From a virus (taxonomy: Duplodnaviria; Heunggongvirae; Uroviricota; Caudoviricetes), in the IMG/VR virus record IMGVR_UViG_2639762982_000010: a stretch of 8,044 nt of DNA. The stretch is one strand, 5' to 3'. Numbering within the stretch: position 1 is the first letter of the stretch; every line of letters starts with the position of its first letter. Position numbers and translations under genes: made by a program. Of the stretch, positions 6,906 through 7,184 are shown piece after piece. Under the pieces are notes generated by a model. That model worked only from the letters and a program-made list of their open reading frames with translations, was not told where the DNA came from and searched no databases.

Positions 6906-7184
6906 TTACCTCCAGATCCGTTGCTGGAAAGTGCGGGACGCACGTGGTGGGCGTTCGGAATAAGGCAGCCTGACAGAGATTATCCAGTGCCGATAGTCGA
7001 GACTGAGAGCTTTCTTAACCTCGAACCCGCGCCTGCGGTAAGAATGAATCAGCCATTCGGCCTGTTCTGCAGTGCATGGAGGGTGCTGGAACCATTCAGA
7101 CTTGAATGCGTGAGAATACCGCCCGTGCGTGCAGGCAAGAACGGGCGAATTATCAGAATTGTAATATTTTGCGTTGCGTGCCAT
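6906..7184 (-). CDS. Hypothetical 92-aa protein immediately upstream of and stop-start coupled to ydfU; either an unannotated gene or the 5' part of a split DUF968 gene
   Basis: ATG at 7184-7182 with strong RBS GGAGAA 6 nt upstream. Product MARNAKYYNSDNSPVLACTHGRYSHAFKSEWFQHPPCTAEQAEWLIHSYRRRGFEVKKALSLDYRHWIISVRLPYSERPPRASRTFQQRIWR. TAA at 6908-6906 is followed 1 nt later by the ydfU GTG. The downstream frame stays open for 13 codons upstream of that GTG. Confidence 0.5.
   Translation of the reverse strand: MARNAKYYNSDNSPVLACTHGRYSHAFKSEWFQHPPCTAEQAEWLIHSYRRRGFEVKKALSLDYRHWIISVRLPYSERPPRASRTFQQRIWR

Follow-up and report, generated by a model that had tools for sequence, protein, structure and literature searches.

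A conserved small gene of the PHROG 1212 family directly upstream of ydfU in the Qin prophage of Escherichia coli K-12

The interval between ydfU and rem

The window analyzed here, a stretch of 8,044 nucleotides, corresponds to the Qin cryptic prophage of Escherichia coli K-12 MG1655, and its coordinates are converted to those of NC_000913.3 by adding 1637400. On the minus strand, a 92-aa protein-coding gene of the PHROG 1212 family occupies positions 6906..7184, starting with the ATG at 7184-7182, extending for 92 codons and ending with the TAA at 6908-6906; its Shine-Dalgarno sequence, GGAG (7192..7195), is separated from the ATG by a spacer of 7 nt. The downstream member of the pair is ydfU (5855..6904, minus strand, as annotated in NC_000913.3), which encodes 349 aa and whose C-terminal half is a DUF968 / His-Me finger (HNH) nuclease domain (Pfam DUF968, E=1.5e-76; PHROG 96, 'HNH endonuclease'). 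In the MG1655 coordinates of NC_000913.3, ydfU spans 1643255-1644304 and rem 1644651-1644902. The two frames meet in a stop-start junction (6902..6908, minus strand), in which a lone spacer base, C 6905, separates the TAA from the ydfU GTG at 6904-6902, and the Shine-Dalgarno sequence of ydfU, GGAGG (6909..6913, minus strand), is made of the final two sense codons of the small gene, UGG AGG (Trp-Arg). Upstream of this GTG, the ydfU frame continues without a stop for a total of 25 codons, as far as a TAA, and an in-frame GTG at 6943, 13 codons upstream, generates a 38-nt overlap with the 92-aa frame. The original prediction had described this architecture correctly to the base, including the ATG, the preceding GGAG, the TAA and the 92 codons, the one-base gap with the GGAGG within the last codons of the upstream frame, and the 38-nt overlap.

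By itself, the length of the frame is weak evidence, since frames of at least 92 aa appear in 3.7% of dinucleotide shuffles of the 346-nt rem-ydfU spacer; the decisive evidence is comparative. An assembly indel near the junction, raised earlier as a possible source of the two frames, is excluded, because a 701-nt query spanning the frame has matches of at least 99% identity in 1168 complete E. coli records and the junction is identical in 59 out of 59 distinct variants. The same 701-nt stretch is present in 4408 of 5426 complete E. coli genomes. The spacer between rem and the small gene also contains a stable stem-loop (7211-7237, minus strand; GCGGGG-CUGAAC-UCCCGC, plus four further pairs), which has no T tract after it and hence does not qualify as an intrinsic terminator under standard criteria.

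No feature is annotated between ydfU and rem in NC_000913.3. The statement in the original prediction that no annotated gene lies in this interval therefore holds for the curated MG1655 record, and fails for PGAP, UniRef and PHROGs. In K-12 NCM3722, a PGAP CDS with identical boundaries, whose product is identical to that of the Qin frame, is recorded as WP_012304870.1, 'hypothetical protein'; the UniRef entry for the 92-aa protein is A0A094VVT9 ('Prophage protein'), and the exact protein is found on at least 1000 contigs under one or other of these two names. In all rows sampled from complete E. coli genomes, PGAP places a 'hypothetical protein' after rem, or the gene equivalent to it, and before the DUF968 gene, and the O157:H7 and O104:H4 prophages, with about 82-84% DNA identity, contain a homologous PGAP CDS in the same layout, again separated from the DUF968 gene by a single base. 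The gene is already held in RefSeq (PGAP), UniProt and PHROGs as an uncharacterised protein and hence is not new; its absence from the curated MG1655 record marks a gap in annotation, not a novel type of element. Curators should nevertheless take note, since MG1655 serves as the bacterial reference genome and its curated annotation lacks a conserved gene of 92 codons. At present, the 346-nt stretch is taken as the untranslated leader of ydfU in transcriptomic, Ribo-seq and Rho-termination studies.

Protein family and coding selection

Residues 27-92 of the protein match the complete PHROG 1212 profile (1-66 of 66, E=1.7e-35). This 66-residue family (phrog_1212), which carries the function label unknown, includes Gifsy-2 STM1021.1n, mEp237 gp051, PY54 ORF47 and phiES15 gp017. 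A tblastn search of phage genomes retrieved 66-aa relatives with 37-48% identity from Gifsy-2, SPN3UB, mEp237, phiES15 and PY54, as well as from Klebsiella, Edwardsiella, Hafnia and Erwinia phages, and the Gifsy-2, Klebsiella and Erwinia homologs match the same PHROG 1212 profile. The hosts of phages with the short form include Salmonella, Klebsiella, Citrobacter, Kluyvera, Yersinia and Edwardsiella. In lambdoid phages, genes of this family are small, stand alone and lie upstream of Q in the early-right (nin) region, between replication/DUF1367/rem-type genes and a nuclease gene that is followed by Q.

In the 92-aa protein, a variable extension predicted to be disordered (residues 1-26) precedes the conserved core (residues 27-92). 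The short homologs hold this whole core, including the C-terminal PRPSRxxQQ(R/K)xW tail, even when NinG or YbcO is encoded downstream. Residues invariant across long and short forms include H34, C37, T38, Y49, R52, G53, D63, L73, P74 and W91; H34 and C37 constitute an H-x-x-C motif at a strand-helix junction, and the C-terminal tail, PRPSRxxQQRIW in the 92-aa protein, is basic. AlphaFold2 (AF2), supplied with a 44-sequence alignment, returned a mean pLDDT of 70, with values below 50 for residues 1-23, which are predicted to be disordered, and of about 89 for a core composed of a strand (28-33), a helix (39-52) and two further strands (55-60 and 67-75); the tail, with a short helix at 86-91, was predicted with lower confidence. 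Scans of Pfam (E of 1 or below), NCBIfam and PADLOC gave no match to the protein, and a profile search of PDB sequences found nothing below E=0.03; none of the structural matches reached significance.

About 236 prophage loci from IMG/VR yielded 97 distinct DNA sequences of the frame, whose products share 68-100% identity with the K-12 protein. Across these variants, dN/dS was 0.20 for the whole frame, 0.59 for residues 1-26, 0.11 for residues 27-66 (core) and 0.064 for residues 67-92 (C-terminus), and the minor-allele frequency at codon positions 1, 2 and 3 was 0.07, 0.065 and 0.18, respectively. The values of 0.06-0.11 in core and tail indicate that the amino-acid sequence itself is selected. 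Length variants of 90 or 92 aa are all in frame, and the position of the ATG is homologous in the variants listed, the exception being a recombinant (L219) with a GTG start. The Shine-Dalgarno sequence of the small gene is GGAG in some variants and a weaker AGAG in others; the K-12 allele is full length, has a good GGAG-7nt-ATG site and differs from the consensus by conservative substitutions only.

Some loci are unusual. The frame occurs, with 91% protein identity and with junction and YdfU intact, on a contig (L253, JAGZPX010000007.1) that is assigned to a metagenome-assembled genome of Veillonella parvula, and the presence of this E. coli prophage locus is probably due to binning contamination. 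In E. coli ECMA0423 (L255) and Shigella flexneri SFBU1023 (L256), the small gene is intact and the first frame found after the junction (TAA-T-GTG) has only 57 codons, against the normal 349 aa of ydfU; should this short frame be ydfU, the small gene would have outlasted the decay of the nuclease gene.

Junction, RNA structure and expression of the K-12 copy

The sequence TGGAGG-TAA-N-GTG is invariant in all 59 distinct junction variants, in which identity to K-12 ranges from 47 to 100% for YdfU and from 68 to 100% for the small protein; the spacer reads TAA-C-GTG in nearly all of them and TAA-T-GTG in a few. A hairpin with an 8-nt loop and a UAAC bulge is predicted over the junction (6898..6937, minus strand; MFE -19.3 kcal/mol, z = -2.0). 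In this structure, CCCGCAC (6937-6931) pairs with GUGCGGG (6904-6898, comprising the start codon of ydfU and the next 4 nt), and UUUCCAG (6930-6924) pairs with CUGGAGG (6915-6909), which contains the ydfU Shine-Dalgarno sequence. Most of the 59 variants are predicted to form the hairpin, with 13-14 bp and -15 to -20 kcal/mol; pairing is kept in 97.9% of cells, and many of the one-sided changes are C-to-U and preserve a wobble pair. Compensatory changes were absent among the 59 variants, whose sequence is too conserved for a covariation test to have power, and the hairpin is thus inseparable from the coding and Shine-Dalgarno constraints. The short-form relatives end with UGG GGG or UGG AGG followed by the stop codon, with the next gene starting +1, +2 or -4 nt away, and the terminal GGGGG is partly paired in an analogous manner in Gifsy-2 and phiES15. 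Since the tight spacing and the embedded Shine-Dalgarno sequence are conserved and the frame relationship is not, this pattern favours translational coupling and argues against a programmed +1 frameshift.

The 92-aa gene is probably translationally coupled to ydfU, either by reinitiation or by unmasking through the terminating ribosome. The invariant junction with its embedded Shine-Dalgarno sequence agrees with the stop-start coupling that had been proposed from the single sequence, and we infer the coupling itself from sequence and folding. In the proposed mechanism, the last two sense codons, UGG AGG, would serve as the Shine-Dalgarno sequence of ydfU, with the stop codon one base before the GTG, and the 3' end of the small gene would base-pair with both elements and mask them. 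A ribosome finishing the small gene would melt this hairpin, after which it may reinitiate on ydfU or a new ribosome may load there.

Reassortment between alleles of the small gene and those of ydfU is evident among the IMG/VR loci (e.g., L162, L039 and L060). In L162, a small protein with 79% identity accompanies a YdfU with 99%, and another pairing combines 91% with 80%. Such reassortment implies that recombination has its breakpoints at the invariant junction or close to it, as is typical of mosaic boundaries in lambdoid phages.

The start codon of the small gene lies in a predicted hairpin of its own (7177..7204, minus strand; -16.4 kcal/mol), in which CGUGCCA (7204-7198) pairs with UGGCACG (7183-7177) and the Shine-Dalgarno sequence of the gene occupies the loop and inner stem. 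The 86-nt leader of the gene has z = -2.9 and folds better than 199 of 200 shuffles. Across 33 variants, the outer 7 bp of this hairpin stay paired with the exception of a single cell, and both sides change in two of the pairs. The recombinant L219, with unrelated upstream DNA, forms a different hairpin that likewise buries its GTG start.

Published work on Rho-dependent termination bears on whether the K-12 copy is expressed. A qRT-PCR study counts the terminator upstream of ydfU among the strongest that depend on Rho (PMC9160355). In the microarray and RNA-seq data compiled there for nusG/rho mutants and bicyclomycin, rem is unchanged and ydfU has values of +1.4 to +2.8, given as fold changes in the table of Fig. 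S1 and of uncertain scale (PMC9160355). Because rem is unchanged and ydfU changes, these compiled data place the Rho terminator in or just after the 92-aa frame; the study treats the region upstream of ydfU as an untranslated leader (PMC9160355). The mRNA-strand C/G ratio is 1.2-1.8 over about 6920-7280 (minus strand), compared with 0.4-0.6 in rem, and this C-rich, G-poor mRNA over the small gene fits the terminator as published (PMC9160355). Together, the reported Rho termination and the composition of the mRNA suggest poor ribosome coverage of the frame in the laboratory. Once the gene is recognised, the strong Rho terminator reported upstream of ydfU would be seen as termination inside a coding region that is poorly translated.

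The start-site tables of TetRP (tetracycline initiation profiling) that were searched, also under U00096.2 coordinate 1642608, list rem and have no entry for the ATG of the small gene. The supplement of a later initiation-profiling preprint (Stringer), from a study that targets ORFs of 50 aa or fewer, has no entry for the frame either, and neither the WP accession nor the family identifiers appear in any paper found by literature search. For rem itself, the TetRP supplement places the start at 7497-7499 (minus strand), one codon past the annotated ATG (MNIEEL... versus MMNIEEL...). An Rfam scan of positions 6500-8044 gave only a sub-threshold isrK-like match near hokD (7629-7710, minus strand; 25 bits versus a gathering score of 50). 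Overlapping it, just downstream of hokD, is a terminator-like hairpin with a T tract (7633-7650, minus strand), through which transcripts reaching rem and the small gene must read. The Rho terminator, the paired start codon and the lack of a TetRP entry all count against strong expression in K-12, and are compatible with the reality of the gene in the family.

Other explanations of the frame have to be weighed against the comparative evidence. The region could be a non-coding leader of ydfU, that is, a Rho-attenuator region, or a chance ORF, in which the frame is incidental or acts only by being translated; frames of such length do arise in 3.7% of shuffles, the region acts as a Rho terminator in K-12, and structured RNA elements are found at both of its ends. 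This explanation is nonetheless extremely improbable given the dN/dS of core and tail, the protein homologs with 38-50% identity in other genera with different flanking genes, and the confident compact fold that AF2 predicts for the core. Equally improbable is a split gene or pseudogene, in which the 92-aa frame would be the former N-terminus of a longer DUF968 protein cut by a frameshift in the 38-nt overlap. The overlap of the frames, the 25 open codons of ydfU upstream of its GTG and the confinement of the DUF968 domain to the C-terminal half of YdfU are what such a history would leave, but no fusion to DUF968 occurs among 129 matches, among 520 protein clusters from a profile search, all of them small, or among the 105 matches of an exhaustive HMMER search of 1.84 billion representatives, nearly all of which are stand-alone proteins of 35-121 aa. 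The few longer matches are chimeras with unrelated domains, the three long HMMER matches being one Phage_rep_O chimera and two low-complexity matches; a 248-aa protein (P0187), in which a PHROG-1212 domain (residues 194-248) follows an N-terminal Phage_rep_O domain, probably stems from a chimeric or frameshifted gene call rather than from a true fusion. Furthermore, the 66-aa homologs stand alone upstream of NinG, YbcO or RusA, the Klebsiella phage ST846-OXA48phi9.1 has a 67-aa short form and DUF968 as two separate genes, and the two-gene layout is kept in the 59 junction variants. The upstream part of the ydfU frame is not conserved as protein: variable sites just upstream of the junction (CAA/CAG; CGG/CGC/CGT/CGA; ATC/ATT) are synonymous in the frame of the small gene and non-synonymous in that of ydfU, which shows that the latter is non-coding upstream of its GTG. 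The split DUF968 gene, offered in the original prediction as the alternative to an unannotated gene, is refuted on the criterion set beforehand, in-frame fusion to YdfU, which no homolog displays.

A programmed +1 frameshift at UGG-AGG-UAA-C, where a stalled ribosome would slip and make a fusion of ~443 aa besides the two separate products, is very unlikely as well. The lack of a slippery heptamer had been cited against programmed frameshifting; that argument is sound for a -1 shift and beside the point here, because ydfU is in the +1 frame, which no shift other than +1 could join to the small gene. Shifts of +1 are promoted by rare AGG codons and by a Shine-Dalgarno sequence close by, as in prfB, and the Qin junction is like prfB in having its downstream frame at +1, a GGAGG next to the stop codon and a rare codon, AGG, in the P site, overlapped by the Shine-Dalgarno sequence; after a shift at the stop, the codons would be GGU AAC GUG CGG, those of the ydfU frame, and the 13-nt junction is invariant. 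In contrast to prfB, the stop codon is UAA and not the weak UGA, the Shine-Dalgarno sequence is not 3 nt upstream of the P-site codon but overlaps it, a re-pairing codon of the CUU-U type is missing, and no lineage in the exhaustive HMMER search encodes the fusion directly. The next genes of the short forms, starting +1, +2 or -4 nt from the stop, do not conserve the frame offset, and the Trp-Arg codons, the Shine-Dalgarno sequence, the stop and the start fully explain the invariant junction. With fused orthologs lacking and the frame offset variable, a prfB-like shift at AGG-UAA-C with its overlapping Shine-Dalgarno sequence was rejected. A different proposal concerns the K-12 copy, which might be intact but silent under laboratory conditions, with Rho stopping hokD/rem transcription in or just after the frame and the start codon masked; we regard this as possible, although we lean against it. 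In its favour are the terminator upstream of ydfU, reported among the strongest measured, with de-repression of ydfU and not of rem in rho/nusG mutants and bicyclomycin, the higher C/G ratio over 6960-7280 than in rem, the conserved hairpin at the start codon and the lack of a TetRP entry. However, the allele is full length with a good initiation site and only conservative substitutions, the same allele is present on at least 1000 contigs, and absence from the TetRP tables searched is weak evidence. A silent K-12 copy is compatible with a real gene in the family, which is the main explanation.

From the comparison of homologous sequences, coding selection, family membership, independence from DUF968 and junction invariance can be regarded as established for the 92-aa gene. 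The substitution pattern is that of a translated, selected protein, and the frame is very probably a genuine, independent protein-coding gene of the lambdoid nin region, probably built for translation together with ydfU. The unannotated gene envisaged in the original prediction is thereby supported, through strong purifying selection, a stand-alone phage family and the invariant TAA-N-GTG with its embedded Shine-Dalgarno sequence.

Nuclease neighbours and comparison with known systems

The gene context of the short form was surveyed in 32 loci from phages and from Enterobacteriaceae represented by one genome per species (L005-L008, L246-L250, L259-L282), covering the genera Citrobacter, Kluyvera, Enterobacter, Siccibacter, Kosakonia, Pluralibacter, Phytobacter and Superficieibacter. 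The gene directly downstream encodes NinG in 18 of the 32 loci, YbcO in 7, DUF968 in 3, RusA in 2 and a cytosine methylase in 1; in the remaining locus, it has no Pfam match at E 0.001 or below. A nin-region nuclease thus follows directly in 30 of the 32, and 28 of those 30 are His-Me finger (HNH) proteins by published classification. In this classification of the superfamily, DUF968 and YbcO/DUF1364 belong to group 7 and NinG to group 24, and all three are predicted to act as recombination nucleases (PMC5714182). DUF968 follows the small gene in all of the Escherichia long-form loci sampled.

The constant slot upstream of a nuclease could reflect plain synteny of mosaic lambdoid genomes. A more specific reading, which we consider rather unlikely, is that the PHROG-1212 protein is a dedicated partner of nin-region recombination nucleases, acting as a regulator, inhibitor, chaperone or DNA-targeting subunit. 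If it were such a partner, coupling would ensure that the small protein and the nuclease are made in fixed proportion, and the invariant His-x-x-Cys motif and the basic tail would form a functional surface. The lead of wider interest is the near-constant position directly upstream of lambdoid recombination nucleases (NinG/Rap, YbcO, DUF968, RusA), whose regulation is poorly understood; beyond this lead and the annotation gap, the gene is an ordinary uncharacterised phage gene.

In its junction, the pair resembles coupled genes such as rpmI-rplT of the E. coli IF3-L35-L20 operon, where the second gene has its ribosome-binding site masked through pairing with the coding region of the first. The likeness to pairs of this type comprises a stop and start within a few bases, a downstream Shine-Dalgarno sequence inside the upstream frame, and a predicted stem that would sequester both the Shine-Dalgarno sequence and the start codon. 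The difference is that coupling in the Qin pair is deduced solely from its sequence and folding, and that its stem is without covariation.

In size and position, the gene recalls lambda ninD, ninE, ninF and ninH, which are likewise small (57-68 aa), tightly packed or overlapping, and located between the replication genes and Q, with ninF in the slot directly upstream of ninG. Kinship with NinD, NinE, NinF or NinH was considered and rejected, as the hhalign probability was 0.07-0.21% for all four and there was no Pfam match to NinE, NinF or NinH. NinF and PHROG 1212 proteins are not equivalents, since both co-occur in Erwinia phage 59.

The closest counterparts are the short phrog_1212 forms, which share the full-length profile match, the conserved residues, the nin-region location and a 3' end in which Trp-Gly or Trp-Arg codons provide the Shine-Dalgarno sequence of the next gene. 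Compared with them, the Escherichia form adds an N-terminal extension of 24-26 residues, which is variable (dN/dS 0.59) and predicted to be disordered, and it is paired with DUF968 in the sampled loci, whereas most short phrog_1212 forms precede NinG or YbcO.
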